The notes below the pieces were generated by a model that was given only the letters and a program-made list of their open reading frames with translations, was not told the origin of the DNA and searched no databases. A program made the position numbers and the translations under genes. A DNA stretch of 62,661 nt, filler included, from Circinaria calcarea (taxonomy: Eukaryota): NCBI GenBank assembly GCA_051942165.1. It is 3 parts of 3 records of this genome, joined end to end, with 100 filler letters (N's around TTAATTAATTAA, not from the genome) between each part and the next. Parts side by side here need not be neighbours in the genome. Positions count along the whole stretch, not along the records: positions 1 to 20,851 come from JAVECS010000160.1; 2 more parts are not named here. One strand, 5' to 3'. Positions 1,102 through 47,086 of the stretch are shown one piece after another. How positions within the stretch are numbered: position 1 is the stretch's first letter; every line of letters begins with the position of its first letter.

Positions 1102-2962
1102 TCAAGGTCCGATCTGTAGTTTCCGAAACCCTTCCTCGAGTTTCTCCAACTCTTGTACCACGTCCTGGTAGAAGACAGCTTGAAGTTTCGGATTGCCAAG
1201 ATCATCACCGCAACCAAAATCACAGTAGAGACATTTTTTGACAATTTCGCCGTATGTGCTACCCATCTCTCTACTTATAGAACTGACAGCACGCGTTGCC
1301 ACGAAGAACTCGGTGAGACGGTTCTCACTGTCTTGGATGTCTCTTGGTTGCTGCAATTCCCGCAAGGTCTGCGCATACCCTAGTTCTAGAAGCACTACTC
1401 CAAGGCCGAAGAGGATCGTATTACGAACGCAACTTGGTGGTGGGAAGTTTGCAGTACGATATAAAGATCCATCGGGTCCTTTAACACGAACATTCAAATG
1501 AGGCGCTGTCAAAGCAGGTGATTGCTGCGTAAGCAAGGCTTCGTCGATGCCGAAGAAATAAATCTCCTCACTTCGTAAGGACTCTTTCAGCCAGGGTGTC
1601 GCATGATATTGGAGGACAGCAGTAGCAAGTGATCGTGCAAGATGTAATCGCTCATACTGGGAAATGCGAACCGAGGGCCCTTGCTTGGATAACGAAGATA
1701 TTATTTGCTCTAGCGACGTAGCATGACGATGGTTGCGTTGAGGCGTTGACGGTGGGAAGTAGATGAAGTGTTTATAACACTCTATATCATCCAGTACCCC
1801 TAGGCATTTGTCGGTGTGCGGCAACTGCAAGACACTTCTCAACTGATCACAGAAGTTCTTCCGCGTACATAAATTCCGCAAGTTGATTGAGGGCATGCTT
1901 GTACATGCCAGAGCAGTGTCAGTGATAGAAGGGACAGTAGCCTGGAATTTCACACTCTTCTTGGTTTTCCTGACGTATACCTCCGCCGACTCATCATGCT
2001 GTCTCTTGAGCGTCTCCACTAGACTGAAATTCTGCGCATCCGACCTTATATGGTTCTCTTGGCCTTCTGTAGGATCCCCAACAATAGATTCGACGAGGAA
2101 CCATACTGGATCTCCAGGGGTTACACTACCCGACAACGTCACATGTGTGAACGCCAACTTGAACCGTACTTGCCGCGTAGACGTATTCTCAGGAGCAAAG
2201 GCCTCCAGACAAAAATGAGTGAGGTGTTCGGTATGCTTCGTGCAAGAGTTCGACAGTGCCCCGTATACATGCTTCGAAGCCTCCTGTATCAACCTAAACT
2301 TCTCAACGTTCTGGCTCAAGCCCTTCGGTGGTTTCTCAGCTTGGCGTCGGTGGCCTTCGAGTCTAGAAATCTGAGCGGAAAGGCGGATGAAATCGTCATT
2401 CAGTGATTTGAGTTCGGCCAGCGTCTCGTTGAGGCGTGATTCCGAGAAGCTAAACTTCAGCTTCTTAGCCACACGATTGCGCCACTTCTTGTCACCGGGG
2501 ATTTCTGGCTATATCTCGGTAGTGTCAGTTGGAATCCGATGATTTCTTCATTGGAGGAAGGTATACTTGACCGCTTTGTTTCATAACCTCATCCAAACCC
2601 CGGCTCTCCTTCTCAATAATGTGTAATTGCTTCGTAACCTGTACGATGATCGTCATGCAGGTGTCCTTCGAGGACGCCAATTGCTCCATTAAATGCTTCT
2701 CGATGATCGGGGAATTCCAACTGCTGTGACTCTTATCATGGAGCATACCACTGGCAACATCAGGTTCGAGAACCGACCCAAGTAAGAGACGGCACTCATT
2801 TCGAAAGATGGTCTTCTGTGTTTGAAGTTTCTGTTGGAATTGGTCCACCTTCGTTGTAAACTTGCAATATCTCACCAACGGCTTCCAACAGTCTTCGTAA
2901 TGCTCTGCAGCGGATGCTAGCAGAGGGAGGATTGTAAGTACGAATCCCACAGCTTCCGCCAT
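1102..2962 (-). CDS. HeLo-like/fungal N-terminal helical domain + C-terminal kinase-like (DUF7580-type) protein, ~600 aa, 2 exons (2962-2567, 2508-1102)
   Basis: N-terminus MAEAVGFVLTILPLLASAAEHY resembles the hydrophobic first helix of HeLo-like domains. C-terminal motifs LARSLATAVLQYHATPWL, LFGLGVVLLELGY, YGEIVKKCLYCDF and FYQDVVQELE are typical of DUF7580-type proteins. The 58-nt intron 2509-2566 (GTATAC..CTGAC..TAG) joins the two ORFs in frame. Confidence 0.75.
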
Positions 2963-3263
2963 GAAGTTGATCGGATCGTGGTATTCAAACAGACTTCGTC
3001 GCCATTCAGATACTCATGTACATGACATATAACCGCCAGACAAGGTTCTGTTCGTCCAATCATCCATTGAAGAGTCAATGAAGCCCTGTACCTGCATAGA
3101 TAAGGTACAGCAAGCATCCTTAAGGCGATTATCAAACTTTCGTCGAAGGATGCTTGCCCCTGCTGCTCCGGTGGCAAGGGATTTGTAGTTTTTATTCTGC
3201 GACGTTGCCTGATTGCAGATTATACTCGAGACGCGGGGCCAGCCGGCACAATCATAGCGGAAG

Positions 3264-6200
3264 ATGGCCATGGCATATGATACTTTGGTCTTTACCCAGG
3301 AGTGGATTGATGGGAATAATTTCCAACGTCTACCTCAAGAAGATCAAGTGGACCTGAGCTTTGCGCAAGAGTTGTATGATGCATGTATTGGATTCTTCAC
3401 GAAAGTTTTGCAGGGCATCTCCCGATCCGGTAGCGACATTGTCCAGAAGTACCAGCTTGGCACTTTGAAGGAGGAGTGGGCTCGGTTGTACTTATGGGGC
3501 AGCGGATTTGAAAATGGCAAACTGGCTGGTGTACTCGCCCAGTCAGACGAGCTACGAGACAGTGTTCTCGAACTTCTCTCGGGCACTAGCCAACTGCTCA
3601 TCCACAGTAAGCAATGCATCCACTCTTGTTTAAAATCCGTCAAGTAACAGAGATTGATGAGAGGACACCTTTTAGATCTTGCTACGAATCGTCCGTCGAT
3701 ATCCTCGGACTTGAATGTCCAAGTCGCTGAACTCAGCAGGCTCGCGGATCGATCAAGACTCATCACCTCTAGTTCTCTTAGTAACTACGCGGAGGACGCT
3801 GAATGGTTTACCATCGATGAAAAAAACGACCAGGAAAGACCAAGTTCTGCCTTGGTAAGAAGGTGTACGAAGCTGGTTGGTGAAACCGAGCTGACGGCCA
3901 AAGAGGGCAGAAACGGCTGCCTATCAGGAGCGCTCAGCGTTATCATTCTCTGCAAAGCACGATCCATCAACTTGCAATGAAGACTCTGATGCCGAAGTGG
4001 ACAGCTCGGATGAATCTTGCTCTGATTTCTATTCGACACTTCGATGTCGAATAGACTGTCTGATGGATCTACTGCCGACGATGGAGCAAAGCCTTGCGCA
4101 GTCTAGGGCAATAAGGAAAGCACCTGCATTGAGGATCCCGTTTACTGTGTCCGAGGCTGCTCGACCCTTTGTGCTCAACGTGCACGACAAGTTTAGCATG
4201 GCTGATAGCAAACTGGTCGAACGACTTGGTGAGTCCAATTGGCAAAGATACGTGACAGTCAGGGCTCGAATGAATCGAATCGCCAGCGTCAATGATGTCA
4301 ACGGGGAGACTCGTGAAGTCGAATGGACTAAGCCGGTGGTGTTTGGGAAAAACCCGCCTCAATCTATGTTCACCCCCTATTCGGTGTTTCATGATTCCGG
4401 CATGGGTACAAGCATGGCATCGACCTCACGGTATACTGCATCAGTGGCCTCTCATACCTCCTTCATCTCCAGCCAAGCGGAGGAAGGTAAAGCAACGTTA
4501 CGTGTGCCACCAACGCCCCCAGAAGTAGCTCTAAACGAGCCTTTTAGATGCTTTATATGCGGCCACATGCTCTTCAAAATCCAGAATCGTGTTGATTGGA
4601 AGTGGGTCAACTTGGAGAAGCCATCGAATAGAGGCTAAATCGTTTACAGATTACACGTTTTCGCTGATCTCCAACCTTATATCTGTACTTTCGAATCCTG
4701 TAAAAGCAAAATGCTAAAATTTCCAACGCGGAAGTTGTGGTCCGAACACGAGTTCCCTGAACATCGGCAGAGTCGTACGTGGCATTGCCCTCTTTGCTCA
4801 ACAATATCACACAGCTTCCAGGATCTCGAGGATCATCTTTCGATGAGCCATGCAGACCATATGCCCTCTACGTCGCTTCAAGTCATCCTCAACACAGCTG
4901 AGACTAAGGATGCCGAACCAATCGAAGAGCAGTCTTGCCCTTTATGCAAGATATTACCGGGGAAATCTCAGAGGACCTTCGCTAAGCACGTCGGCCGGCA
5001 CATGGAAACTATTGCGTTGGCTGTTCTCCCCAGAGAAACGGAAGACGATTCGGATGAGAGCTCACTCGACTATGCTGCAGAGGATAGTGCGTCCATTAGT
5101 GTGAAAGACGTGTTAACGGGACAAGAAGATTCTGGAAAGGAAGAAGGCAACTCGCCACTCTATCCCAGCACGTTACAGCTTCCCCTGCCTTCTCTCACTC
5201 TTAAGTTCTCATTGGAAGAAAGTAAGGAGAGCAGACGTTGGCCGAACCCAGATAGCTGCCGATTTGTGAAAGATATTGTGGGAACTTCGCTCATACGCTC
5301 AATCCAAGGACCTGAGAAATGCCCGCTAGTGACTTGTGAGCATCACAAAAAAGGGTTTGCTTGTAAACGCGATAGCCGATATCATGCTTTAGCTCACTAC
5401 GATGGCAGTACGACTTGTGGATTCTGTTCTAACTTAGATTTTGCGAAAGACGCGCCTTATTATAACCATGATGCATTCAAACGCCACCTTACTTCTGTGC
5501 ATGGAGTTGACGCAACGTCACTACCGAGTAGTGGCATCAGGATAAGTCCTAAGAAATCTGCGGCAGACGTCTCAGGTAAATGTTGTACTTGTTCAGTAAC
5601 TTTCTACAAGCCCCAGGAATTATATGATCATCTTGATGAGTGTGTACTTCGTTTCATATCGAGTCTGCCCGGCAACGAAGGGGAAAAGTGTTCTAGTCAG
5701 CATAGCGGAGCCGAAGGTACTGTGGGAATCCCTGATCCGCCAAGATCACCTCCGCAACTGCCAAATAAACCCCTTCAACGACATCCTGACGACACTGCGA
5801 TTTGGCCGCTTTCAGAAGATGCTGGCCAGGTGACGGTATCGAAAGAGCTTTCCATGAAGTCATCAAAGAGAAACAGCATTTCATCTATCCCCAACGTTGA
5901 GAAAACACTCAAAACACCCCGTGAAGCTCTAGTGCAGCCACACAGGCCAAAGGCATATGCAAATATCCCGTCGGTCCATCGACCACCGCTCGTATACACT
6001 CCTACAGTACAAGATGACAGCATACCCCGACAAACAGCTACTCGAAGCTCGCTGCACGAATATGAGGAACGGCTGGTGTCGAAGACCCAAAAAGCCGAGG
6101 AAGAAAGGAAAGAGGACAGTAGTCAGCAGCCGACATACTGCTACTGTGATGGGGGTAGTTATGGCGAGATGATGGCTTGCGATAATGCTGAGTGTGAGAA

Positions 6201-7173
6201 GGAGTGGTTTCACTTACAGTGCATAGGGTTGACGTACTCCCTGCCAAGAGACTGTAAGACTTGGCGACATTATGACAGTAGCAGTAAGCTAACTCTATCT
6301 GTAGCAAAGTGGTATTGTAGGGACTGCGTTACTAATCTGCGACCAATGCACTACGTGACTCTACAACAAGCCCAACAACAACGAGGAGCCCAAAGAGAAG
6401 CAACTCCGGATTCAATTGAAAATATAACTACCACTATCCCGGAGGCTAGAAGAGTCAGCGGACATACAGAATTTTTTATGAGACGTGAAAGTTTAGTGTT
6501 ATCGCTCATAAAAGAGAGACAGTGGAAGGAAGCAGAAAAGCTAGAAATGGAAGTTGTTACAATGAGGGAAAGCCTTTTGGGAGCAGAACATGCAGATACA
6601 CTACACAGTATGGGGAATCTAGTAAAGATATATAACGCACAAAGGAAATGGGAAGAAGCTGAGAAGCTAGGATTGCATGTAATGGAGACGAGAAAGAAGG
6701 TGCTTGGTGCAGAAAATATGCATACACTAGACAGCATGGAGATCTTAGCAAGAATATTCAGTACTCGAAGGCAGTGGAAAGAGGCTGAAAAGCTGGAAGT
6801 CCAAGTTATGGAGTTGAAACAAAAGATACTTGGCGAAGAACATCCTGATACACTTGACTACATGGGACTCTTGGCACGGACATACTTCTTACAAAACAAA
6901 TGGATTGAAGCTGAAAGCCTGCAAATTAAAATTATAAAGACGAGAGAGAGGGTGCTTGGCCCAGAACATGCAGATACATTGGACAGTATGGGCCTCTTAG
7001 TAAAGGGGTACTGTGAGCAAAAGCGATGGAAAGAAGCCGAAGAGCTGCAAACGCAAATTTTGGAGACGAAGAGGAGGGCGCTTGGCGCAGAACACCCTTC
7101 TACACGAGCCAGTATGGCGAGTTTAGTAAATATATTCTCTATGCACGGACGAGAGAAATCTGGTGAGCTATAA
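3264..7173 (+). CDS. Mosaic protein: helical N-terminus + acuF-like C2H2 zinc-finger region + KLAP1-like C2H2 fragment + ING-type PHD finger + 5 TPR repeats
   Basis: Predicted introns 3607-3675, 3855-3903 (AAG acceptor, least certain), 4602-4649 and 6254-6304 link the ORFs in frame. Motifs: CFIC..WKLHVFADLQPYICTF..C..W.EHE..H..WHCPLC..CPLC..HVGRHMETIALAVLP; YCYC..SYGEMMACDN.EC.KEWFHL.CIGL..KWYC.DC; 42-aa repeats W.EAE.L...V...R..VLG.EH.DTL.SM..L. Confidence 0.8.
6520..7149 (+). repeat. Five tandem 126-bp (42-aa) kinesin-light-chain-type TPR repeats
   Basis: Units start at about 6520, 6646, 6772, 6898 and 7024, each with W.EAE.L and LG.EH..T..SM motifs. Confidence 0.9.
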
Positions 7174-12174: not shown

Positions 12175-15100
12175 TTAGCTGGCGTTGCGTGCTATTGATA
12201 TTAATCGCTTCGAAGCTTGGATACTCCTCTTTCTGAACAAATGCGTTTCAGATCCGCTCTTGACAGAGCTATCCTTGTCGCTTCCACTCCTAAAACGAAA
12301 GATTCGCTTCGCAGTAGATACCGGTGTAAACTTGGGCCCCTTTTCTGGTTTCGTTGGAATTGAAATGAGGCCGTCAGAGTGGGAGTTTGTTTTAACTTGA
12401 GATGTAGTCGATTCTAGCGAGTACATCATCGGTTGCGGTAAAGATTGAAGAGGACCCCATGAATTAACACGATTGGAGAGTGGTATAAACTGAAAAGAGT
12501 CTGCGAAACGCTCGAGGAGGATTGTGGCTAACGCTGTTTCAGAGCCTGATCTGTGTTCGTCAAGCACATTGTTTTCAGAATTATCGTGAGACGAACGGAC
12601 ATTTGCGCCCGCTCTGAGAAGTTGTGCTGTGGCTGACTTGTTTTGGGTTACAATAGCTGCTTGTAAAGGGCTTCCGAAGATACCAGCTTGCATATGAATG
12701 TCGGCTTTGCCCTCAAGTAACATCGTCATGATTTCTTTCTGCCCGAAGAACGAAACCTGTTGTAGCAGACTACCAAATAAGTTATCTCTAGTGTTTATAT
12801 CAGCCCCTGCTTCTAGTAGTTCACTTATGATTTGTACGTCTTCTGTACGTAGCGCAAGTTGTATAGAAGAATTCAGGACTTCTTGCGAGACCTTTCCGGT
12901 AAGACCACAGTTTAGGAAAAGGCGTACAATGGCTGGATGCCGGCCTAGTATCGCGGCTCTCATTGCATTACCAAAGATGCCCCCTTCTTGATGCACTTTT
13001 GCTTTCCCATCGAGTAAAAGCTCCACCACTGCCTTACTACCAGCAAACGAGGCTGCTTGTAATGCGGTACCATGGAAACCACTTTGGTCATTTATAGGTG
13101 CAGCGTAATCTAATAGCAACCGTACAAAGGTCTCCTGAGAGCTCGCAGCAGCTTCACGGAGTGCTCGCCCTAGAATATGTGTATCAACCTTTTTCTCGGT
13201 CAGGATGTTTCTTAAGCTCTCCTGATCACCGTCCACGACTGATCGAATCACTTCACTTTCCACCGAAGTCTGGAACGGTGAGCTCCAGACATAGCCGAGA
13301 TATTTGCTCTCGGAGGTCGATCTCACTTTAGGCCCAAATAATTCGAGCAACTCTCGCTGCATTTCCCCTTCCACTAGGGGTCGATTCTTCTGCAATTCTT
13401 TGACACTAGTCAAAGCTCTCAAGGTCCATGAAGTATATGGATGCTTTAATCCGAAGCACTTTTCTTGACTGCTTGAAGCTTGATCCAACAGGACCTCCGC
13501 ATCCTTCAAATATCCTCGCAACGCATAGACTGCGCTAAGACTTCTCATTGTGGTCAATGTATCTGGATGATGATTTCCAATTCGCATTTTCTGCATTTTT
13601 AAGATTTGCTTAAGTCGCAGACTAGCATCATCATATCGCTGCTGAAAGCGTATGTAGTCGGCAAGCCTACGAGCAGCTTTCAGGCAGTACGGATGGTCGG
13701 TTCCTAGCGTTTGCTCCAAGCCGTCAAGAGCATGACGGCTTATCGCTTCAGCACCTGGCATATAGCCTGTCCAAGCGAGTATAGCAGCTAAATCGGACAT
13801 GCGGTTCAATGTAAAAGGATGCTTGTCCCCATAAAGGCATATTGACTTTCGTACAACATCACAAGACAAGAACTCCGCTACACCGCTCGGTTCGCAGTCC
13901 AACGCGAGCTTCGCCAAAGTGTCAAGAAGCTTGACATGAGAGACTTTATCGGAAATGGTGAGATCCGCATTTTCGAGAGCATCCCGTAAAAGGTTGTACG
14001 CATCTTGATGTCTACCTTGACATCTCATACTCAACACCAAATTGTCGGCAGTCAATAAAGTGGGGTCTGATGCTATACCAGAAATCCTAATCCTTGCGGT
14101 CAAACAGCTTCTGCTATAAAGTTCCGCGTCCTTGCATTGGTCACGGTTGCGTAGCATAGAAGCCAGCTTATTCAAGCAGAACAAGGTAGCCACATCAACT
14201 GGTCCAGGTGACTGCTGTTCTCCGAATAACCTCACTGCTCTCTGGAACTTTTCTTCAGCTTCCTTATAAAGACCCTGGTCTTCAAGTGCCAACGCAAGTT
14301 GGCTAAGGTCTCTAGCTTCAGGGCTACATTGCGTCGAGATGATCAACAATTTGACTGCTCTCTGGAATTTTTCTTCGGCTTTCTTGTAATGACCCTGATC
14401 TTCAAGTACTAAAGCAAGTCGACCAATTTTTCTAGCTTCAGAGCTACCTTTCGTTGAGACAATAAATTCTTCACAGCCATCCGGCGTGGTTGGCAAGTTT
14501 CTGAGGCGGCCGTGTAACTTAGGCCCCGGAAAGTGTCTCAAAAGCACCTTCATGCTATCATCGGCTAAGCAGTACATGCTCCTCATACTCTGCATCACAA
14601 TCTGGTAATTCGTACTGGAGCCTGCTAAGAACTTAGTCATATCAATGTGGTTGGCGTACAACCCTATAGCATCACAGTGTGGTAGAATAGCAGATTTCTT
14701 GTTGACAATCTAGGAAGAACAGTTAGAATAGACAAAAAGAAAAAAAAAGACTTTACACGATCGTGGGCTGTCTTACCATAAGATTGTCAAGGACTGGCAG
14801 AAGCTCGTAATAGCAGATAATCTTTCGGGCAAATGTTTCATGAGGAAGCCACTTGTTGAAGCTGTCGCTTATATAGCCTAGCTGTGACATATACCTATCT
14901 CCTGAGATATAGGATGTAGATTTATTTCCGAGGGCATAGTCGATGTTAGACATAGCAGCTGCAAACTCTATCCAGTCTTTCTCTCGAAAACCGAAACTGG
15001 GAGTACCGAAAAACATAATACCCTTGATGGATGCCCGTAGAGGAGAACCGCATTTCAGTAGGAAAGCTTGCAGAATTAGCCCTCCTAGGCTATGAGCAAC

Positions 15101-15777: not shown

Positions 15778-16360
15778 ATGCTGATAGGTTAATACCATGT
15801 TATCGTTGAAGAATGCGTCCGCCACAAAACGAAAAGGGTATGAGCTGACACAGTAAGTCAATTATTATATAGGCTGTGTGCCACACCTTTTATTTAAATG
15901 GGCCGATTAGGAACAGCGACATCATGCATAGTAATATATAAGTGGAGAATAAGTATTCTGCTCAACGTGCTGATAGGTTAATATTATAGTAGGCTGTGTG
16001 CCACACCTTTTATTTGAATGGGCCGATCAGCGGAACAGCGCCATCATGCACAGTAATATTTAAGTGGAGAATAAATATCTTGAACCATTCCGCAAGGCCT
16101 TATTGTCGCCTTATTTTCGCCTTATTTTCGCCTTATTTTCAAGAGCCTCCAATTCTGCCTTATTATTAGGAGAGGTCCATTAGATAGTGCTGATAGGTCA
16201 ACATCATATTAGGTTGTGGGACACACCTTTTGTTCAAATGGGCCCATCAGCGGAATAGCGGCATTATGTACAATAAGATTTGGGTGGGTCCCGAGCTATT
16301 CTGCAAGGCTTCATTTTCAAGAGCCTCCAATTCTGCCTTATTACTAGGAGAGGTCGATGC
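15778..16360. repeat. Degenerate triplicated repeat in the divergent promoter region
   Basis: Core AGGCTGTGTGCCACACCTTTT..AATGGGCC at 15871, 15991 and 16211. TGCTGATAGGT(T/C)AA at ~15779, ~15968 and ~16188. TTTTCAAGAGCCTCCAATTCTGCCTTATT twice (~16136, ~16314). GCCTTATT(G/T)TC x4 near 16097-16140. Confidence 0.85.
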
Positions 16361-16451
16361 ACAAGCTTTGTTCGAGAGAGCACGAACGCGCCAAATTGAA
16401 AGAAGGTCTCGGGGGCAGCTTTCTCGGCTTCGCCTAAACTCGATCGAGGGA

Positions 16452-19142
16452 ATGGAGCATTTGCGCGACGATTACAACGACTTCACCTTCCCTTACAAAG
16501 TTCATCTGCTCTGCGACCCCTCAGCTCCGCTACTCGACAGGCAGGAAAGGAATCTGAATGATTTCGTTCAGTTACCTCAACTACTTGGGTGGAAGATTCA
16601 TGAAAATGGCGATAGAGAGTTCGAAAACGGTTCGTTGTTGATCGACGAGGTGATGCAAAGATGGCTCTACTTCGAGGTCCTAGCACAAGTCTTCGGCCAT
16701 CTTCCCGGCTACCAGTGGGATCACTTTGTTATAATTGACACTTCTGGCCAGTCTTACATCAATACGCTGCAGCTACCAGATTACCTAGAGCGATGGTTGG
16801 ATAGCGAGAAGAAGAGTCCCACCACGGAAAGAAATCGCCGATTAATCCGTATTCAGCAAGTACTGGACAGAGCGCGCGTGTACGTGTCACAGCACTGCAC
16901 AGTTCCAAATCTTGACAGCAACGCTAGATGGGAGATTAGTGACCTTCTTGCACTGAGTTTTATGGTCTTGGGAGAGACTTTAACGCGAGCACTGAATCTG
17001 ATCCGAAGGAAAGTCGGGTTCAGTATTAATGGTTGGTGCAGCCACGACTCGCGCAATCAAGGGTGGGGCTACAGCAAGATCATACTTCAGAAGCTCAGAG
17101 CCGATGGATGGTGTGCCAAAGCGCTTCATATGCTCCAGGCTTTACTTAGAGGCAATACTATTGGTCTTGTATACTTATTCACACTTAGGGAATCGAGCTC
17201 CAAAGGTGGGGATCATGCAAAATGCACAGCTTCTGAATGCCGAGAGAAGGAATTTAAACGCATACTGGGAAGGCCGGTCGATCCAGTCCAATATCACCAT
17301 TGTTCCGCTGAAATCAAAGACTTCTGCTTCGAGGAGCCAACGCAGTACGTAGGACCTGGTCAGACACCCAAGTATCCCATCTGTACTACAGTGGAGAATT
17401 TCAAAGGCGATATTGAGGGCCGAGCCCTAGCTGCAATCATCGATAAAGGAAAAATCCCACTGTTTCGGTTTCAGAAGACCCGACGGAGTCTTGAACTTGT
17501 CGAAATGAGCCAGTCATTTGACAAGTCGTACGCTATCTTTTCACACGTCTGGGCGGATGGCTTTGCTAATTTGAACAATAAAAACGAGATGAGCCTATGT
17601 GTGCTGAACATGTTCTCCAAGATACTGGAACAAGTTGCCATACAGCGGGCTGGTACTAGCTCACCAGTGCAAGAATTGTTCTGGATCGATACGCTTGCGA
17701 TACCAGTACAGGGAGAGTTCACGGCGCAACGCTTCAAAGCTATAAGTCAAATGCACAACATATATACTCATGCCAAATATACGATAGTTCTTGACTTGAG
17801 TCTCATGCGGGTCACTATGGGCTCCGGCTATTCAAATCCTGCCATGAAAATAACCATGAGTAAATGGATGACACGGCTATGGACTTTGCAGGAAGCTGTT
17901 CTAAGCAAAAATCTGTTCTTCTATTTCCAAGATCACATTTACTCGATGAATAATCTTGAAGATATGTTCGCCAAAGAAGACTCTGAGCTTCACTCTTGTA
18001 TACCATCGCTTTCTCGAATTTATCATGATGGTATCCTCGGCCAAATGCGACCAAAAATACATGAGGAGTTTCGGAAGGATGAAGGTTGGAAACCCAGGTC
18101 TGACTTTCTTGCTGCAGTCTGGAAGGCTACCCAATGGAGATCCACTTCACATCTAATCCATGAGACTCTGTCTTTAGCCACAATGCTCAATGTCAATACA
18201 GAGCTCTTCGCACCTCCAAGCATTTGGCCAGAGAAGACAGAAGGTTATCAGCAAGACTGTGATGAAAGGATGATCTCTCTTCTATCTCTCTTTGCGGCCA
18301 TATCGCCTTGTCCAATTCCGCCGGGTATGATTTTTCTTCCAGGTCCCAGACTGTTGAAAAATGGATATGGCTGGGCTCCAAGGACTTGGCTGTCATCTCG
18401 TGAAATTGATTCACCGGACCCTCTTTCTCTGCCTGATGCAGGAAATACACGACTAACCGCATCCGAAGGCCTCGAAGTACAATTTCCTGGTTTCTTGCTA
18501 CACGATTTAGGTGATAGTAGAAACGAGTTAGATATGCGCGAAAACTTCTTTTTCTCTGCTGACTCTAGACTTCTAGACTGGTACCGTGTCGAACCTGCTG
18601 AGGACCCGAAGCGTTTCCCAGGAGCGGAGAGACTCCTCGGACGTGATCTTGCAATAATCGTGTCTCGTCTACCAGTTGTAGACCTCAGAGAGATTGCTCT
18701 TTTCGTTGCCATTAAAAGAACCTGGGGTGGTATTCACTACGTGGAGATACCCAACCGGGTGTGGATCAGTCGAGAAGAAAGGCAAGAAATGCTGCAGGAA
18801 TGGAGCGACAAGCATCGCAAGGGCGATCCTGATGCGATGTCTGCCGGAGAAAGGCTATCGCCGAGTGAGAAGTGGTGTGTTGATGGTCCAACTCAGCCCG
18901 CCGTGGTGCCAGGAGAGGAGAAGAGAAAAGGAGATGCCCAAGGCAAAAAAGAAGCCCAGTTCTCTGAAACCAATGACCTTGGAAACGGCAGACCAAACCG
19001 CGTAGAAGCGCCAGAACCTAACAATTGGCTCGTACGTAAGGCGAAAACCTTGACGTGGAGCACTAAACCGTCAACGACTTCACGCTGGCAACGTTACAAA
19101 GCCAACAAAAACGTTGCTGTTGGAGATGGAGGTTACCCATAA
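16452..19142 (+). CDS. HET (heterokaryon incompatibility) domain protein, ~896 aa
   Basis: HET motifs YAIFSHVWADG, LFWIDTLAIPV, AISQMHNIYTHAKYTIVLD and SKWMTRLWTLQEAVL. N-terminal QRWLYFEVL and GWC motifs, and C-terminal WAPRTWL, fit this HET subfamily. ATG 16452 chosen because the upstream open frame lies within the promoter repeat. Confidence 0.88.
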   Translation: MEHLRDDYNDFTFPYKVHLLCDPSAPLLDRQERNLNDFVQLPQLLGWKIHENGDREFENGSLLIDEVMQRWLYFEVLAQVFGHLPGYQWDHFVIIDTSGQSYINTLQLPDYLERWLDSEKKSPTTERNRRLIRIQQVLDRARVYVSQHCTVPNLDSNARWEISDLLALSFMVLGETLTRALNLIRRKVGFSINGWCSHDSRNQGWGYSKIILQKLRADGWCAKALHMLQALLRGNTIGLVYLFTLRESSSKGGDHAKCTASECREKEFKRILGRPVDPVQYHHCSAEIKDFCFEEPTQYVGPGQTPKYPICTTVENFKGDIEGRALAAIIDKGKIPLFRFQKTRRSLELVEMSQSFDKSYAIFSHVWADGFANLNNKNEMSLCVLNMFSKILEQVAIQRAGTSSPVQELFWIDTLAIPVQGEFTAQRFKAISQMHNIYTHAKYTIVLDLSLMRVTMGSGYSNPAMKITMSKWMTRLWTLQEAVLSKNLFFYFQDHIYSMNNLEDMFAKEDSELHSCIPSLSRIYHDGILGQMRPKIHEEFRKDEGWKPRSDFLAAVWKATQWRSTSHLIHETLSLATMLNVNTELFAPPSIWPEKTEGYQQDCDERMISLLSLFAAISPCPIPPGMIFLPGPRLLKNGYGWAPRTWLSSREIDSPDPLSLPDAGNTRLTASEGLEVQFPGFLLHDLGDSRNELDMRENFFFSADSRLLDWYRVEPAEDPKRFPGAERLLGRDLAIIVSRLPVVDLREIALFVAIKRTWGGIHYVEIPNRVWISREERQEMLQEWSDKHRKGDPDAMSAGERLSPSEKWCVDGPTQPAVVPGEEKRKGDAQGKKEAQFSETNDLGNGRPNRVEAPEPNNWLVRKAKTLTWSTKPSTTSRWQRYKANKNVAVGDGGYP

Positions 19143-28609: not shown

Positions 28610-30058
28610 ATGCCATATAACACTCGCCGTAAATCGCTCTCCCTGCCTGCTCTGGGCATCCAGCTGCCGAATGGCTCACGCGCTCACCGCCCTTCGCCGC
28701 CAAAGTCCTCCGCCGCCAGCGAAGCCCATCCGCCTCCAGCAAAGAAAGTCAAACGCTCACATACATCATCGACACCGTCGCCTACTTCACCATCGCGATC
28801 GAGATCATCAACTACGGCCTCTACCAAAACGGTCTCGTTCGTGGAGCGGCCCAAAAGCAGTGGTCGAAATGCATACGAGCACACGCCTCCGCCTTCGCCC
28901 GGCGCAGAGGAGGATGCGAAAGTTGATACGGAGGGAATCAACGACGATATTGTAGTTGGTGTGATCGAGCAGCTGGAGAAAACCGGGAATCGGCCACATC
29001 TGGTCAAGGAGCTGGCCGCGGTACTCTCGAATGTGAACGATGCAGTTGCAGGGTAGGTCGACTTGCTAGACCTGGCTTGATCGTTGCTCCTTGTGGAAGT
29101 GGTCATATACTTATGTTGTTGCAGTTCTGCCAACCCTGCTGCCCTCCTTTCGTCTCGTCTGGCCGCCTACATGCGACGTTCTACCTGGACTCCACTTTGT
29201 CCATGTCCAATTGGAAAAGAGCTGATCCCCGTTCATCCACGTAAAGTGTACTACTTCTTGACGACAATAAAACGCCAAGAAATGCCCATTGGCTCTTCTG
29301 GCATTCTATCCATACCGTCGGTCGGCGTCGTAGGTAGTGGTGGTAAAGGGGGTAAGAGGATAATATCCCCAAGTCTCAGTAACGCCAGTATCGATGAGGA
29401 TGTGGAAGGTATCGAAGATCGAAAACGTGCAGCTATGAGTCCGAGTCCAGAGGTCGATTTATCAGATCCCGATTTAGGTGCCACTGTACCCGGTGCGGAC
29501 GACGAATTCACTCCTTCAACGCCTGCAGGGTCATCTTTCTCCGCTCGCTCAAGTTTGGCGCGAGATGGTAGCTGCGGGGGCTCATCCGAGCCCATCAACC
29601 TCGCACACAACCATCGAGGTGCCACCCCACCTCTCGAAGGCGATGAAAAAGAATTCACGCAAACAGCTAGTAGCATGCGGATGAGGGGAATGAGCTTGGA
29701 TGACTCTACTATCAGACAGTCAAAGGAAGTTGAGATTGCCATTACAGGAATCCAAACCGATATGCATCTGGACGAAACCGAAGAGGAAAAGGTGAAAAGG
29801 AACAGCGAGGTTGCCGCAGCCCTTTTTGGTGGCCATCACCACCAAGCGCAAGAAATTCCGCTGGCACTGATGAGCAGCCCGCTCGTGAAACCTCTGCACG
29901 CTACCATTGCCAATCAGTTTGGAAAGGAGAATATTGACATTGAGATGGGAGAGACCGCATCGATATTGGGAGATCAAGGGCTTGGTTCCAGCTGGGATAT
30001 CAAAAAGCCGGAGAACGTGGATCTGGACGAACTGGATGCTTTGTTGGGTGGTTTCTAA
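28610..30058 (+). CDS. GDS1-like winged-helix domain protein, 2 exons
   Basis: MPYNTRRKSLSLP start; DDIVVGVIEQLEKTGNRPHLVKELAAVL..SANPAALLSSRL..YMRR..PIGKELIPVHPRKVYYFL; intron 29053-29124; acidic C-terminus PENVDLDELDALLGGF. Confidence 0.8.
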
Positions 30059-34318: not shown

Positions 34319-37300
34319 ATGAGCTTCCCTCCTCTTCACCCGCCTTCTCAGAATTCCATTGCTTCTGGTGCCCCGAAATCTACCAGCGCAGGATCGGCGA
34401 GGACTCGACAGTCAGCCTGGGGGCTGTCTGCTCAGACCGCTGGTGCTCGTCGTGGTTTACCCCCTTTGGCTACCAACCTGGGCGCTTCATCCGTTGAGTC
34501 GTCTGCGCGTCGGCAAGGCGCATCCAACAGTCCTTCCATCAACACCGTCTCAGCCTCACCATTCGCTCCCAGTTTCTCGTCTGTCCTGAATTCGTCCAAT
34601 CGAGTGAACCCTAGCCGAAACACCTCGTCCGCTTCCTCATCGACTCCTCCCTTCACACCGCTTCAACCTGGATCACAGCAGCTCTCTCAGAACAGTCAAT
34701 TACTGGCCTCTCCGCGATCTCGGACCAACACACCCTTCGCCACGTCCAACTTGGCGCCCACCGCTGCGGCGTCCAATACTGCGTCGCAGGGAGGAGGAGG
34801 TGGGAGTAGTGGTGGTGGGCCTAGCTCAAGACCTGCCACATTTTCACCTTCTTTATCACAGCAAACCCTAAGCTCTCCAACCACCGCAACGTTCGATCGC
34901 ACCTCTTTTACTTCGCTAGCCTCCACATCTGCTACTTCAAGTCAGTCTTCTGTGTCCAAAATCGTGGTTACCCAGGTTTTCCTCCTTTTAGGTTCCATTA
35001 CAGAGAAAGAAGGTAAAGCTAAGTGGGACTCCCAAGCTGATGCAATACGAAAGGTGGGCTACACATCCCTCTACTCTTCTCACGTTTCCTGGAAGTACTT
35101 CTGAGCTTTGGTTGATAGTTTGCAGCTGGTAGAATCAAACGGCATGGACGTCTTTGCCAAGTACTTCCGCCGATTACTGGTCGGAAACTCACCTCAGATA
35201 TTTCCAGGTGTGAATAGAAATGTCGAGAATCCAGGAAACTACCAGTTACTGGTGCAGGAGATGGAACGGGTGACTCAAGACCCCGAGCAAGGGAAGAAGA
35301 TTGCGGAAACGATTGATACTTCTGAGGGAGATATATTTCGTGACTTTGACCTTGCAACGTTCATGAATCACTTCAAACTAGATCCTGTGGCCAAGACGTT
35401 GCTGGCCTCATCGTTTACCCAAGTGACAAGGCCAGATCTAAGGACCAAAGGTAAGTTATAGTGTTGCCGATTAATGAGAGATTTCCTCTGATACTGTCTA
35501 GCTGGGTCGATCCTCATCAGCAATTTCCCGTTTCTATTACAAAGTCTTGCGAACTTCCATATTCCGGAGCATGATAATACCCCATCTTTACTGGCAACCG
35601 CCGCTTTTCGATTCCTTCGAGATCTTCCTGAAGCTTCTAGGGATGGCACGGAGAAAAATCGGATATATCTTACGCTTCAATCTCGTTACGCAAGGCAAGG
35701 CATCCCTGTGCCTGCCGTGATCCGCTCAGCAATGGCCTTGACAGATTTGCTGGAGTCAAGACACGAACTCGCCAAAGATTTGCAGAGACATGGGCCTGGT
35801 GTCACAGCAAGCATCGAGACTGCAAAGGATACCCTACGTCGTTATTCTAGAATCGACCTTGATGAAGAACAGATTTCGGGGGCTCTATTGTTCATGGTCC
35901 TTACCCCAGACTGGCAACTCTACCGGCCTAGCATCTTCGTGGCGGCTGTCCGGGACCTTCTCGGGACAGATTTCAACTGGCAACAAGTTGTTCGCGGTTT
36001 CGACCGTCACGGTCTTACAGTCACGCCAGATCAGTTCTTGGTACTGTTCAATGCACTCCTACCAATTGCCCAAGATGACAAAACTTTTGATATACAATCT
36101 CTCTGGGGAGGGCAGTGGGAGTATCCCACAACACAGCTTTCATTTGTTCTAGCATTCACGTCACTACCGCCATCGCAGCTGGACGCGACTTCCATCCCAA
36201 GGCTACGGAAATCTTATGATCCCGATGATTGTCTCGATGGGCCGGAACAAGTAGTGCGATTCATCGATGAAGCACACCGGAATACTATGATTTCAGTGGA
36301 TGCAGTTGTAGCCTTTTTCGATATCGTCTGGGATGCTGATGAATCACCAAGTCCAGAGGATGTTGCTGCGGCCAAAGACGTTATAAGCGTAAGTATGGGG
36401 TACTTCCTATGTTCCGCTGCTGGTACCCCTAAACCTTGGACACCCAGTAAACATTCAATCATGGCCAAGATGATGCTGCCATTCCTCCTCAGACAAGAGG
36501 AAATCCATAGCTTCGTTCTCCACTCACTATGGAAGCAGGATAAGCAGTGGGTTGCTACCAGACTCATCGAAACTCATCTTGAGGACCCCATAAAGCTCCC
36601 CATCTTACTCGACCATGCGCAGGAACATGGCTGGCTTGAGGATCTTTGTACGATGATGAATGGATTCGGCATCGACTTGGCTGCTCTGGCTCATCGTAAA
36701 GGTTACATTGATATTGATCAATGGGCACAGGAGAAATTAGCACGCGGTCCGGGTGAACTTGCAATGGCGATATCCAAGTTTCTTGTTATCAAGGCCCAAG
36801 ACGAATTGCGAACTGCGCGACGAGAGCAGCCTGCTGCGCGTACAGTCAGCCTTGCCATGAAGACTGTTCATGCTATGCTAGTATTCCTTGAAGAGCACAT
36901 GAAGGATCGAATGGATGAGCTCATACTTCTCGAACGGCAATGTGTAGGAGCGTATCCCAGACTAATCAACTACGGCGAAGGTTACGATGATCTGATCGAG
37001 ATTAACAGTGAAAGAGGCAATTCTTTACTCCCCTCAGCCGATGCTGAGATGCAAGAGCTATACAGGAAAATGTATAGCGCTGAACTAGAGGTCCGGAGCA
37101 TTGTTGAAGCTTTACGGGAGTATAAGACCTCGCCCGAGCTGTCCAAACAAGATCTGTTCTGCTGCATGATCCACGGACTCTTTGACGAATATGTCTGCTT
37201 CAACGAATATCCTGATGGGCCATTGGCAACTACGGCAGTACTATTTGGGGGTATTATCTGCTATGGCTTAGTTTCAAACATCACACTTCACGTCGCTCTA

Positions 37301-40300
37301 GAAATGGTACATGAAGCCGTCAGAGAGTATGGTCCGGAGACATCCATGTTCAAATTTGGACTTCAAGCCCTTCTCAATTTTCGAAACAGGTTACAGGAAT
37401 GGCCCGAATATTGCAGCCAGCTTGTCCGAATCCCTGCTCTTCAGGGCACAGAGATATACGAATTGGCGCAACAAGTATTGCGCAGCAAGAGGGACCTGTC
37501 AGGTGCCAATGGCGTTGAGGGACTTGGTGATGTTATCAACCTTACTAATGGTGATTTCGACGCCTTCATTTCTTCGGATCTCAGCATGCAGAGATTCAGA
37601 TCTGTGAATGCAGACATGGATTCCCACGAGGAATATTATGAAGAGCCAGAGGAGGAGGTGCAAGATAAAGTACTCTTTGTCCTCAACAACATCTCGGAGC
37701 AAAACATCAATGCCAAAACTACCGACCTGAGCAATGCACTAGACGGAAAGTATCACCGTTGGTTCGCATCTTATCTGGTTGAACAACGTGCAAAACTGCA
37801 GCCCAACTACCAGCAACTGTATTTAAACATGCTGAATCTGCTAGGGGACAAGAAGTTATGGGTTGAAGTACTTCGTGAGACGTACGTTAATGTTCAGAAA
37901 GTCATTAATGCCGAGTCGACCATGGCCTCGGTCCTTGAACGAACGCATTTAAATAATCTAGGGACTTGGCTTGGATCTTTGACGATCGCCCGGGACAAGC
38001 CAATTAAGCAGAAACACATCTCTTTCATGGACCTTTTGATTGAAGGCTGGGAGACACAACGTATGATGTTGGTCGTACCCTTCACTTGCGCAGTGCTAGC
38101 TGAAGGTACAAAGTCCGTGGTTTTCAAGCCTCCAAACCCTTGGCTTATGGAGATATTCAGCCTCCTGCTTGAGCTGCACGATACCGAAGGGATAAAGATC
38201 AATCAGAAGTTCGCGATCGAGCTCATGTATGAGAAATTTGGGCTTGACAAACATGGAAAAGGGATACTGAAATCCGGGATACTTACGACTCGGAAAGAGA
38301 TGTATCAGTCTAATCTGGCTGGACCGATGATGTCCGATGGTATTGACGGCTTTGAAGACCTTGGCCTTGGGAGTTCGGAAAAAGGGCTTCGTAACGCGAG
38401 GTTCTCCCCAGCTGCCATCGCTTCCTCGTTGCCAGATCTTGAGAACTTGCTCAGTTTCCCGCCGTTGTCTGGGAGTCCTGCTGCTCAGGCTCGTTCACGC
38501 CAGGCTGTGCAAGTTGCGGTACAGCGTGCAATTGCGGAAATTGTGGCACCCGTAGTTGAACGCTCGGTGACGATAGCAACACTTGCTACCGCTGCTTTAA
38601 TCACCAAAGATTTCGCACGTGAATCGGATGAAGATCGGGTCCGACAAGCCGCCCAAAAGATGGCACGAGCGTTGTCTGGCAGCTTGGCCTTGGTCACCAG
38701 CAAGGAACCCCTTCGAATGAGCATGACAAACTTTATTCGTCTAGCGCAAAACGAAGTAGCTGATCAAGCTCTCCCAGAAGGGGCCATACTAATGTGCGTC
38801 AATGACAATCTTGATACCGCCTGCGGTGTAGTTGAAAAGCAAGCGGAAGAGAGATCGATTCCAGAAATTGAACCCCATATCGAGAACATGATAGCATCAC
38901 GCCGGCAACATAGGCAGGATTATCCCACGGAACCCTACAGAGATGCAGCTTTCAGCCCATGGTCTGGATACATCCCGGAGCCTTACAAGCAACTGGCTAA
39001 CGGTCTATCGCCGGAGCAAATGGAAATATACTCGCAATTTGCCCGCCAGGCGCGTGGATCAACTAACCACATACAGACATCATCAACTGATAGCGGTAGA
39101 CAAATCCCTGACGTACTGCAAGAAGCCTTTCCATCCATGCCTAATCTTCCAACTCCATCAGAACCACCAGCCTTACCTCATCAGGCGGCCCAGCAGCAGC
39201 AACAGTCACAGGGTCGTATGCCGCCTCAGCAAGCCGTAGCTCAACGCCCTCAGCCTCAGGTAAACGGCTATATGGACACTAGGACAATTCAGGACCACAT
39301 ACAGGAGATGATTGCTGAACTTAATCACTTGAGTAAGAGCGCCTCGGAGAAACGGTTCAAAGAACTGAGTCGGGATAACAGTGTTGTTGATATTATCGGG
39401 CGAATACAGCATCTCATCATGGCTTCGAGTCCGAATCATGACAACGTAGCCCTACTCACGGCGAGCGCTGTTTGCTCGGTACTAAATGGTATCACTACTA
39501 ACGGTTTAGAGGTGGAGGTTTTCACCCAACTACTTCACAAGCTATGCCACATTTCACTGAACACTGCCAAAGAAGTGATACTACTATTCCGAAACCAGGA
39601 TGATGACAAGATACTCAATACACCGGTAACGGCCGCCTTGCTCGAGATTGGCCTGATGGAATTTGGCCATGTGGATATGGCGTTGACCAGAGCGATGCAT
39701 CAACAGAAGGTTGCTGCGATCGAATGCCTGTCGAATCTGTTGGACCTTCTGCTATTCACCGATCACCCTGTCGCCTTACGTGCTGATTTTGCAAGCAGTC
39801 TCGGCGCAATGGGACAGTGGCTTGCTCAGCAACCAGATCTTGCCATCGCAAAAGATGTTCAGTCAAGACTAAAGGATGCGGGAATTCCGGAAGATCTCGA
39901 CCTCAGCCTAGGGGACCAATCGCTGATCCAGCAAAACCAGATGCAGTATGTCTTCTCGGAATGGATCATCCTGTGCAGTCACCCAGAGCCAAATGATGGA
40001 ATGTTTGTGGCCTTCATATCGCAACTGCACCAGCGACAGCTTCTCAACTCGCAGGATGAAATGGTTGTGTTTATACGCCTCTGCATAGACTATTCAGCAG
40101 AGACTCTTGAACGAGAGGAGCAGCTTACAGCAGATCCTGGCGATATGTACTTTACTATCGACGCTCTGGCCAAGCTCCTCGTACTCTTGGTCAAGAATCA
40201 AGGCGAGACCTATGGAGCGGTTAAAGGCAATAAGCCATCCTACATGAACTCTCTTCTATCATTGATAATACTCATATTGAACAATCATCATGTGGTGCGC

Positions 40301-41621
40301 GGAGAGCAGTTCAATCAGCGCATGTTCTTTCGGCTCTTCTCGACAATGCTATACGACTGGTACGATTTCGGTCGGGTGGATAGCAGTCAGGATAAAGAGA
40401 TGGCGTTGGTTTTCGCAGAAAACTTCCTGCTTCTCGAGCCACACTCTTTTCCAGCATTTACATATGGCTGGTTAAATCTGATATCACACCGAGTCTTCAT
40501 GCCAGCCATCTTGAAGTTGTCGGATGATGAGGTTAGTCTCTAGGCTTTGCTTGCCCGTGTACCTTTATCTGCTGATGCTAGTCAGGGCTGTGAACCGTTT
40601 GCGAAAATCATAGAGCGCATGCTTTCGTATGTCGGTGAGCTCCTAAGATACCCAACGGTTGCCGGAGTCGCCAAGGAGCTGTACAAAGGTGTTCTGAGGA
40701 TCTTGCTGGTTCTCCATCACGACTTTCCAGAGTTCTTGGCGGAGAACCACTACCGCTTTTGTAACATCATCCCAGCCCATTGCGCTCAACTTCGAAACTT
40801 GGTCCTTAGCGCGTATCCATCATCCATTCCAGAGCTACCAGACCCTTTCACCTCAGGCCTGAAAGTTGATCGCCTAGAGGAAATCAGAAAGGCGCCGAAA
40901 GTAGCCGGGGATACCATCTCGCCGCTTCGCCATGGCAGCATCAAAGACATCATCGATCGTTCGGTGCAGGGCGTTGATATTTCAGATGATAACATCACGA
41001 AAATTGCCGAAGCGGCTTATATATCACCGAGAGGAGCAGAATCGCCCCATTCGTCCTTAGCTATTGATTCAGTTCTCCTCCATGCTATTATTCTTTACAT
41101 TGGCCAGACTGCAACTTCTGGATCTGGGTTCAAAAACGGCCCTGCCTTTACTCCAGAATCTCCCCAGGCGATCTTGATGAAACGATTGACAAAAGAGTTA
41201 CACCCCGAAGCTCGATACTACTTCCTAAATGCTATCGTCAATCAGCTACGTTATCCAAATAGCCATACCCATTACTTTAGTTACGCCCTACTGCACTTGT
41301 TTGGTAACGATCATGCAGATCAGCAGGAGTCCGATGTCCGCCAACAGATCACTCGTGTCTTTCTCGAGCGACTCATAGTGCATCGCCCACATCCTTGGGG
41401 ATTGATTATCACTCTACTAGAACTGCTAAAGAATCCAACCTACGCGTTCTGGGAACTCCCTTTTATCAAGGCTGCGCCGGAAGTATGTAATTTATTTCAC
41501 TACATCCTCCGCCCAAAAAATCTAGGCCCTTGTCCCAACTGACAGCGTTTTTGTGCAGGTGAAGAAACTATTCGAAGCTCTCTTCCAGCACATTAACCAA
41601 GACCCACGCGCTTTGGCTTGA
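34319..41621 (+). CDS. NOT1: CCR4-NOT scaffold subunit Not1, 5 exons
   Basis: Introns 35054-35125, 35451-35501, 40532-40585 and 41483-41558. Motifs CMIHGLFDEY..YP..LATTAVLFGGII, FKPPNPW, LHHDFPEFL, NQLRYPNSHT, ERLIVHRPHPWGLIITLLEL. Confidence 0.98.
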
Positions 41622-45979: not shown

Positions 45980-47086
45980 CGAATCCAGACGGGTCAGATA
46001 TCATCAAGGCATCTCGTAATCACCCTGCCTGTTGCCCTGTTCGGCATCGTAGTCGCGGACATAGCGCCAGCTGACAGCGAAACCAAGAGATACGGTAAAC
46101 CAGTCGAACCAGCCTGGGACGGCACACATCATTCACATATCATCCTCACCACCGTCCCGACAATCCTCCCCCCCCCCTCTCTTCTCGCCAAAGGCCCAGC
46201 CCTTGACACAGCCATCCGCTCCCTAAATCCTCTCTAAAAGCGCCAAAGCCGACAAGCTTAACATAGCGATCGACACTCCACCGCTGCAGGCTGGCTCCGA
46301 CTGCAGAGTCACCGTGTTTATCATATATACTTTTGCACCGACAACACGCACCGTTCTCGTTGCGAAGGCTGCCTGTCGACCTCGCTCCCTCCTCGACCTC
46401 GTTACGATCTGCAACTGATCCACGGTTTCAGAGCTTGAGCTTCCCCTTGCGCAGCCGAAAAGGTACAGTCCTGGAGAAAAGCTATCCAAAGCTGTCGGTC
46501 GTTCCAGTCGGGTCGCAGAGCTTGGCTTGGAGACCTACAAACGAGATCGAGAACTCGACGACACAACCGCGCTGTCCAAGCTTCGAGTCCTTTCGCACTT
46601 CACAACGCCTGCGTAAAGCGTTCACTCTCACCGACCCCAGGTGCAATACATTGCGGGCCCTATCCTGCAGGCTTTTTGACAAAGGTGTTGCGATTCTACC
46701 AGAGCTGGGATACGAACAAAGAAAGAAGTCCAGGACAACCACGACTTCGGTACGATCAGTCCTTTCCCATAGTCGCTCTATAACCATTCGACACGACGGC
46801 GGCCCTTGTACATCCTCCGCCGGGGGACCACTTTCGGCTTCCGAGTCTTTTGTCGCCTCGGTCACTACCTGATCGATTTGACTTCACAGCACCGCCAGCG
46901 CTGGCTTCGACATTGAAGTTGCCCTCCCTGGATTATTCGCAAGCACAGGCCGGTCATTACTGGCCTGGCGCAAACGCATCTTCGCCAGCTGCTGCCCTTC
47001 CGCCTGCGAATACCCTTCCGACCCCTCCAAGCACAGGGGACGAAGCCTATAAGCCACCAAGCCAACACCGTCCAGATCCGTACAAT

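Follow-up and report, generated by a model that had tools for sequence, protein, structure and literature searches.

The window analysed here is a stretch of 62,661 nucleotides from Circinaria calcarea (GenBank assembly GCA_051942165.1), in which three parts from three records are joined by fillers of 100 letters; its positions 1 to 20,851 come from JAVECS010000160.1. A gene on its plus strand (3264-7173) encodes a protein with a divergent ZfpA-type C2H2 zinc-finger block, part of which (5314-5655) had been pointed out in an earlier sequence-only reading. We favour the interpretation, with a probability of roughly 0.5, that this block is a vertically inherited ZfpA-type module that would have lost its ancestral DNA recognition and would be kept as a folded zinc scaffold inside a protein with a PHD finger and TPR units.

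Homology of the block to ZfpA-type proteins

Translation of 5314-5655 on the plus strand exactly reproduced the peptide strings quoted in the sequence-only reading, which had likened them to a conserved fungal C2H2 block of a KLAP1 type. We compared a block query of 161 amino acids (5236-5718) with 1.84 billion representative proteins using phmmer. The similarity was present, with matches to 474 clusters at E<=1e-3, 381 clusters at E<=1e-10, and 26 clusters at E<=1e-30. The best foreign match had an E-value of 2.6e-40, and identities ranged from 35 to 51% over about 140 residues. This significant family similarity means that the likeness of the block lies far beyond chance. In the reciprocal direction, tblastn searches of the window with 12 family domains gave matches that were confined to 5227-5667, and these searches found no second copy of the block within the 62.7-kb window.

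A family consensus was derived from 139 domains that span the whole block. It comprises four fingers, of which finger 1 has the pattern C-x4-C...H-x4-H, fingers 2 and 3 are of the C2H2 type, and finger 4 is of the C2HC type. Seven residues lie between the last His of finger 1 and the first Cys of finger 2, a spacing like that of the canonical TGEKP-type linker. Homology begins at 5236, about 25 codons upstream of 5314, and the block is laid out as follows:

5236-5661, plus strand: extent of the four-finger ZfpA-type module, from the family alignment
5236-5310, plus strand: finger 1 of the ZfpA-type block, a remnant with its zinc ligands gone
5314-5655, plus strand: segment originally reported, fingers 2 to 4 of the ZfpA-type block, by C2H2-domain homology
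5320-5397, plus strand: finger 2 of the ZfpA-type block
5416-5502, plus strand: finger 3 of the ZfpA-type block
5581-5643, plus strand: finger 4 of the ZfpA-type block

The sole family name returned by any tool was Pfam PF28332 (ZfpA_C), which occurred in the precomputed lists of canonical matches and in an Atlas neighbour cluster. In the Atlas, the block of the window adjoins this cluster, 86% of whose members carry PF28332. The entry is missing from the precomputed list of the window's open reading frame (P0003), and likewise from those of P0006, P0161, and several canonical members, and the local Pfam copy was without the PF28332 model. With the block, local Pfam reported only Rua1_C (PF14616) at E 0.031 and 15 bits, below the curated cut-off of 27 bits, which gives only a hint of distant kinship to the Rua1 C-terminal domain. 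As for KLAP1 of Colletotrichum acutatum, the consensus given under this name equals fingers 2 to 4 of the derived family consensus and in this respect stands. The label itself fared less well, as neither KLAP1 nor 'key lime pathogenicity protein' occurs among the named matches of the block and family searches; KLAP1 is presumably a member of the ZfpA-type family. By homology, the block is a ZfpA-type four-finger C2H2 domain that is highly conserved in Pezizomycotina.

Canonical members of the family are widespread. Sequence searches recovered full-length orthologues of a protein from Icmadophila (P0153) in dozens of named Lecanoromycetes, and also in Eurotiomycetes, Dothideomycetes, and others, with further canonical representatives in Claviceps, Berkeleyomyces, Schizothecium, Mollisia, Aspergillus, and Microsporum. 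These orthologues align mutually over 80-100% of their length in most rows, whereas the similarity of the window gene to canonical members is restricted to the block. The window gene is therefore not an orthologue of the canonical protein. As canonical orthologues are common in Lecanoromycetes, a canonical ZfpA-type copy likely exists elsewhere in the window's own genome.

Losses in the block and retention of zinc ligands

In finger 1, the family columns C, C, H, and H are occupied by W, S, T, and R in the window copy, so that this finger has none of its 4 ligand columns left and, among the other conserved columns, 2 of 6. Fingers 2 to 4 retain all 12 Cys/His ligand columns, which agrees with the earlier statement that the zinc ligands are kept in 5314-5655 and amounts to 12 of 16 ligands for the whole four-finger domain. 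They also retain 24 of the 33 non-ligand columns that are conserved at 90% or more. The nine losses are Y36H, R43C, R49Y, T53A, K73A, F75Y, R77N, V80A, and S117C. The three replaced arginines are nearly invariant in the family (R43 98%, R49 100%, and R77 99%). According to the numbering of the Zif268 convention, R43 corresponds to helix position -1 and R49 to +6 in finger 2; in finger 3, R77 corresponds to position -1 and V80 to +3. The putative recognition helix had been described as diverged, and the exchanges R43C, R49Y, and R77N at positions -1, +6, and -1 are in full agreement with this description.

With all four fingers taken together, the window copy keeps 38 of the 55 columns conserved at 90% or more, the lowest value of 140 domains (median 54, next lowest 45), and only one other domain among the 140 (P0140) lacks two or more ligand residues. 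The family alignment and these column counts bear out that the segment represents a diverged version of a fungal C2H2 block that is otherwise very conserved. An AlphaFold2 model based on an alignment of 44 rows had a mean predicted local distance difference test score (pLDDT) of 78.5 and a predicted template modelling score (pTM) of 0.67, with a pLDDT of about 55 in the remnant of finger 1 and of about 90 in the fingers. A Foldseek comparison with the PDB gave no match at E<=0.001, and the weak rows (E of at least 0.1) were all C2H2 arrays on DNA.

As the specificity of C2H2 fingers is set at helix positions -1, +3, and +6, and as the changes include these positions, the block could in principle be a retargeted DNA binder, in which fingers 2 and 3, perhaps together with a pair of AcuF-type fingers located upstream, would have acquired a new specificity within a neofunctionalised transcription factor. 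The retention of all ligands of fingers 2 to 4 and of most of the other conserved columns would fit such a role, as would the fact that the sole fold matches, all of them weak, are C2H2 arrays on DNA. However, the three arginines gave way to Cys, Tyr, and Asn, so that contacts are removed and not exchanged for others, and finger 1 and the canonical linker of seven residues to finger 2 are gone, which leaves two tandem fingers. Two tandem C2H2 fingers are usually too few for specific binding. We regard retargeting as unlikely and prefer a loss of the ancestral DNA recognition with retention of the zinc scaffold.

Inheritance of the block with its gene

The gene model that contains the block has the following parts:

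3264-7173, plus strand: whole gene, five exons, 1230 amino acids, stop codon TAA at 7171-7173
3264-3606, 3676-3854, 3904-4601, 4650-6253, and 6305-7173, plus strand: exons, read from the flanks and the spliced frame
3264-4545, plus strand: N-terminal region, approximately residues 1-390, conserved in relatives, no known family
4546-5064, plus strand: region of the AcuF-type C2H2 finger pair, including the intron 4602-4649
6136-6327, plus strand: ING-type PHD finger, interrupted by the 51-nucleotide intron 6254-6304
6523-7152, plus strand: five TPR units of 42 amino acids, kinesin-light-chain type, Pfam TPR_10 and TPR_12

The four introns are 69, 49, 48, and 51 nucleotides long, with the donors GTAAGC, GTAAGA, GTGGGT, and GTAAGA and AG acceptors, and the spliced frame is without an internal stop. 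An open frame of 844 codons (4639-7173, plus strand) contains 5314-5655. The alignment of residues 1-594 of the NCBI-annotated protein P0313 from Varicellaria rhodocarpa with the spliced protein is gapless at junctions 1/2 and 3/4, which supports the five-exon model. With its 844-codon open frame, the clean splicing that matches P0313, the ING-type PHD finger, and the TPR units, the gene looks real.

Pfam searches at E<=1 gave no match for the N-terminal region in the window exons and nothing credible in the corresponding segments of eight relatives, and no known domain was found by Pfam in the N-terminal 400 residues. In the finger-pair region, local Pfam reported only a weak zf-C2H2_2 match and not PF26082 (zf-C2H2_AcuF). 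The latter entry is present on 16-26% of the members of the Atlas clusters nearest to the relative P0152 and in the precomputed Pfam list of P0172.

The sequence-only reading had taken the block for a captured fragment of a host gene. This proposal did not hold, as three relatives, P0006 (705 amino acids), P0161 (771 amino acids, from Circinaria calcarea), and P0313, show the same succession of N-terminal region, finger pair, and block as the window gene. The alignments of P0006 and P0161 with the window protein extend from the finger pair to the end of the block, and the one with P0006 continues for about 120 residues past the block. Identities in the N-terminal region are 77% to P0006, 70% to P0161, and 42% to P0152, and those in the finger pair are 73% to P0006 and 71% to P0161. 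The block is 45% identical to that of P0006 and 44% identical to that of P0161, and the linkers are similarly different (42% to P0006 and 38% to P0161 for one linker, 37% to P0006 for another). P0006 and P0161 have four intact fingers with canonical contact residues. In a tree of 43 domains, calculated with LG+C20+F+G4, the block of the window grouped with those of P0007, P0006, and P0161 (split support 97/87*). Since the relatives share the order of parts and the window block groups with theirs, alignments and tree together establish that the block was inherited with its gene and was not recently captured.

Among 172 block-bearing proteins, 31 had a finger-pair match, one of which was inside the block itself, so that the pair is upstream in 30; a match to the N-terminal region was found in four, an ING-like PHD finger in three, and TPR units in one. 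A metagenome scan, which gave 80 loci out of 114 confirmed ones, revealed the N-terminal region together with the finger pair in 43 of the 80, with the block downstream in 11 of these 43. A search with residues 1-844 was dominated by TPR proteins, with P0006, P0161, P0031, and P0060 as the useful matches.

The tails of the relatives differ, with a Myb domain in P0161, a WW domain in P0152, and about 600 unrelated residues in P0313, and the combination of PHD finger and TPR units was found in none of the relatives examined. The tails of the family that is defined by the N-terminal region and the AcuF-type pair appear to be interchangeable. P0200 (699 amino acids) has an AcuF-type finger pair followed by TPR_10 repeats and is without a ZfpA-type block. 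Three metagenome loci (L058, L069, and L071) have TPR-like matches at a distance of 1.5-2.7 kb on the downstream side of the pair, in the same gene or possibly in a separate one. Up to five loci were present per metagenome assembly prefix, which suggests a multi-copy family. Several metagenome loci, among them L009, L010, L014, L030, and L037, have one to six in-frame stops in their N-terminal regions; the stops are clustered at few sites and look like introns that leave the match in frame. The family of N-terminal region, AcuF-type pair, and variable tail is undescribed; its members come from Lecanoromycetes that form lichens and from fungal contigs of environmental origin. Judged by the nearest relatives of the gene, the source of the window is probably a lichen-forming Lecanoromycete, too.

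Accelerated evolution of the block

The block had been expected to lie on a long branch, and its end branch was indeed the longest in both domain trees, with a length of 2.0 in comparison to a median of 0.22 (140 rows, quick method) and of 3.95 in comparison to 0.41 (43 rows, LG+C20+F+G4). The end branches of blocks in pair-type genes are longer in general (median 0.41 versus 0.18). As the best metagenome locus is only 51% identical at the amino acid level, at which synonymous sites would be saturated, we used amino-acid relative-rate tests rather than codon tests. In Tajima tests, either P0006 or P0161 served as the sister and was combined with each of six outgroups, which resulted in 12 tests per region. 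In the block, all 12 tests were significant (p from 0.0079 to 5.8e-6), the window copy having 28-43 unique changes and the sister 8-13. For the finger pair, 4-9 changes were found in the window copy versus 5-14 in the sister, and none of the 12 tests was significant. As all block tests but none of the finger-pair tests were significant, the acceleration is confined to the block, and these comparisons demonstrate a block-specific acceleration at the amino acid level.

An acceleration of this kind could result from decay. In that case, the domain would be vestigial and under relaxed selection after the gene had gained other parts, and its ligands would persist because of the cost of misfolding or by chance. 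The block of the window gene is as similar to that of P0006 as are the linkers (45% versus 42% and 37%) and far less similar than the N-terminal and pair regions (73-77%), finger 1 has already been destroyed, and the generally longer end branches of blocks in pair-type genes point in the same direction. Nevertheless, the ligands speak against mere decay, as the chance of keeping 12 of 12 at a linker-like retention of 37-45% is only 7e-6 to 7e-5. Moreover, 73% of the conserved non-ligand columns of fingers 2 to 4 are retained, versus an agreement of 33% with the majority residue in variable columns, and 844 codons are free of frameshifts and stops. We consider a vestigial domain improbable, to about the same degree as a retargeted one, and a folded scaffold that is still needed remains the preferred interpretation. 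The pattern suggests that the zinc scaffold is under selection and that its surfaces are either not under selection (relaxation) or selected to change (positive selection).

The PHD finger and the TPR units

Downstream of the block, the protein continues with about 150 residues without matches, followed by the PHD finger and the TPR units. The exon part of the PHD finger matches the solved chains of ING4, ING2, ING1, Pho23, and Yng1 with E-values from 2.3e-14. Splicing of the 51-nucleotide intron restores the last Cys-x2-Cys and thereby the C4HC3 ligand pattern. By comparison with ING structures, the residues of the aromatic cage are presumably present as well. The PHD finger of the window protein is thus alike in sequence to those of ING, Yng, and Pho23 (E 2e-14), but differs from them in not being located at the end of an ING-type protein.

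The TPR tail was recognised by Pfam as TPR_10 (E 6.2e-46) and TPR_12 (E 6e-29), with five stretches each. Its units are thus like those of the kinesin-light-chain type (E 6e-46), but are not located behind a nucleotide-oligomerization domain (NOD) as in most fungal matches. The units are 40-55% identical in amino acids and 60-65% identical in nucleotides. We also considered an origin of the tail from a tandem repeat or a recent duplication and rejected it, as Tandem Repeats Finder detected no tandem array and the nucleotide identity of the units is only 60-65%.

In four other proteins, the block is combined with an ING-like or PHD_5 finger (P0066, P0132, P0065, and P0173), with an additional RRM in P0066 and P0132, so that block and PHD finger co-occur repeatedly and in varying orders. 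Block duplications inside genes were also seen. In P0004 from Dirinaria sp., a finger pair is followed by a full block and by three block-like stretches that are partial, and in P0005 (1949 amino acids), ankyrin repeats and an SH3 domain precede two complete blocks in tandem; these layouts indicate that the block was duplicated inside some genes.

The sequence-only reading had interpreted the block as an integrated decoy rather than a DNA binder. As a decoy, the block would mimic the canonical ZfpA-type factor and bait molecules that target this factor, with the TPR part coupling the block to a response. Of the features of NOD-like receptor (NLR) proteins, a C-terminal repeat domain is present in the form of the five TPR_10/TPR_12 stretches, and TPR_10 repeats are of the kind that occurs in fungal NLR-like proteins, in agreement with many NB-ARC/TPR matches. 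Residues that keep the fold are conserved and surfaces have diverged, the neighbouring genes include HET, TPR plus ankyrin, and DUF7580 genes, and the presence of a canonical orthologue in dozens of named Lecanoromycetes makes a target paralogue probable. Nonetheless, we obtained no direct support for this idea. Across the exons, Pfam at E<=1 gave no match to a NACHT, NB-ARC, other NOD, or known death-effector domain. In the relatives the block is intact, and its inheritance together with the gene corresponds to a fusion that is old and not recent. One would expect a bait to look like its model, yet the window copy keeps the fewest conserved columns of all 140 domains, and the TPR units are far from near-identical and give no sign of concerted diversification. 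Fungi are not known to us to have integrated decoys, although no search aimed at them was made, and we consider a decoy very unlikely. Least probable of all is a version in which a NOD-less sensor from the family with N-terminal region and AcuF-type pair would display the block as bait, a mimic of the hyphal-development regulator ZfpA with preserved fold and diverged surface, and would couple the recognition of molecules that target ZfpA to chromatin via the PHD finger or to partners via the TPR units; if true, no integrated-decoy-like arrangement would have been described from a fungus before.

The proposed role and its relation to known proteins

The interpretation that we favour, an inherited ZfpA-type module without its former DNA recognition, can be specified as follows. 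The module at 5236-5661 is a long-standing part of its gene, in a family whose layout places the ZfpA-type block behind an AcuF-type pair and a so far uncharacterised N-terminal region and whose tails vary between members. The block alone has sped up in the lineage of the window. Finger 1 has lost all zinc ligands and the three near-invariant base-contact arginines of fingers 2 and 3 have been replaced, with the 12 ligands and most of the fold-defining residues of fingers 2 to 4 being retained. The module would no longer recognise the ancestral DNA target of ZfpA-type factors and would be retained as a folded zinc scaffold, probably as an interaction surface. The ING-type PHD finger likely is a reader of methylated histone H3, and the five TPR units would bind partners, so that the whole protein may be a chromatin-associated adaptor or regulator.

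Several points weigh against this proposal. As the 139 comparison domains were the best full-coverage matches to the query, more degenerate copies may exist, and the lowest rank of the window copy has to be read with this in mind. The choice of sister and outgroups for the rate tests was guided by levels of identity and by a single tree, in which the query branch is very long. In fingers 2 to 4, the retention of ligand columns differs only weakly from that of other conserved columns (Fisher p=0.086), and the similarity of block identity to that of the presumably unconstrained linkers would also fit plain relaxation. Further points come from work on ZfpA itself. In an electrophoretic mobility shift assay, ZfpA did not bind to the atrF promoter, as stated in PMC10434176, and a 2026 paper on ZfpA and chitin (PMC13321839) is without the terms ChIP (chromatin immunoprecipitation), binding motif, or DNA-binding. 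As these papers do not establish direct DNA binding even for canonical ZfpA, the postulated loss of DNA recognition is deduced from what is generally known of C2H2 fingers.

ZfpA of Aspergillus fumigatus, A. flavus, and their orthologues (PF28332) has the same four-finger layout as the window block, at the identities given above, but the rest of the window protein is unrelated, its finger 1 is defunct, and other residues stand in place of three conserved arginines. In Aspergillus, ZfpA controls hyphal development, branching, and septation, and affects the susceptibility to drugs and immune cells. In PMC10434176, loss of zfpA is reported to lower the susceptibility to azoles, and Cys/His-to-Ala exchanges in the C2H2 domain of A. 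fumigatus ZfpA behave like a deletion, with the exception of C377A. KLAP1 is described in the available parts of PMC3458416 and PMC12735693, citing Chen et al. [quoted passage not shown] The closest counterparts of the window gene are P0161, P0313, P0006, and P0152, which share the order of N-terminal region, AcuF-type pair, and ZfpA-type block but differ in having kept all four fingers and in having other tails.

In the alignment of the 139 domains, the zinc-finger block is among the most conserved parts of ZfpA-type proteins across ascomycete classes. Its additional incorporation into a distinct multi-copy gene family, the tails of which can change, is a pointer to an undescribed fungal gene family. 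In the window gene, the block escapes its usual constraint, with one finger and the base-contact arginines lost and the zinc scaffold kept, which offers a natural experiment on the question of which residues of the ZfpA block serve which need. We regard this as a clear case of domain-specific release from constraint. A paralogue that drifts away from its ancestral job is a fairly ordinary event, and no new mechanism or new kind of system is revealed as it stands.

Genomic surroundings

The gene is flanked by a divergent neighbour on the minus strand at 1102-3013 with a DUF7580 match (PF24476, E 5e-21), the probable first exon of which is at 2525-3013. On the other side, a frame of 844 codons on the minus strand (12175-14709) combines TPR_12, TPR_10, and ankyrin repeats, with no match to a NOD. 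It could be taken for a recent local duplicate, but we rejected this possibility as the identity between its TPR units and those of the gene at 3264-7173 is no higher than 25-28%. A frame of 981 codons at 16197-19142 (plus strand) contains a HET (heterokaryon incompatibility) domain. With its DUF7580, TPR plus ankyrin, and HET genes, the left 19 kb looks like a cluster of lineage-specific, non-housekeeping genes.

Housekeeping genes are located further to the right than these neighbours. They include an orthologue of Not1/CDC39, the scaffold of CCR4-NOT, in two adjoining frames at 35492-41542 (plus strand) and a kinase with a fungal KA1 domain at 50014-54510. The window also contains a GDS1 winged-helix gene at 29081-30058, a classical C2H2 factor at 46784-48334, and a zf-C2HC5 gene at 55292-57043 (minus strand).

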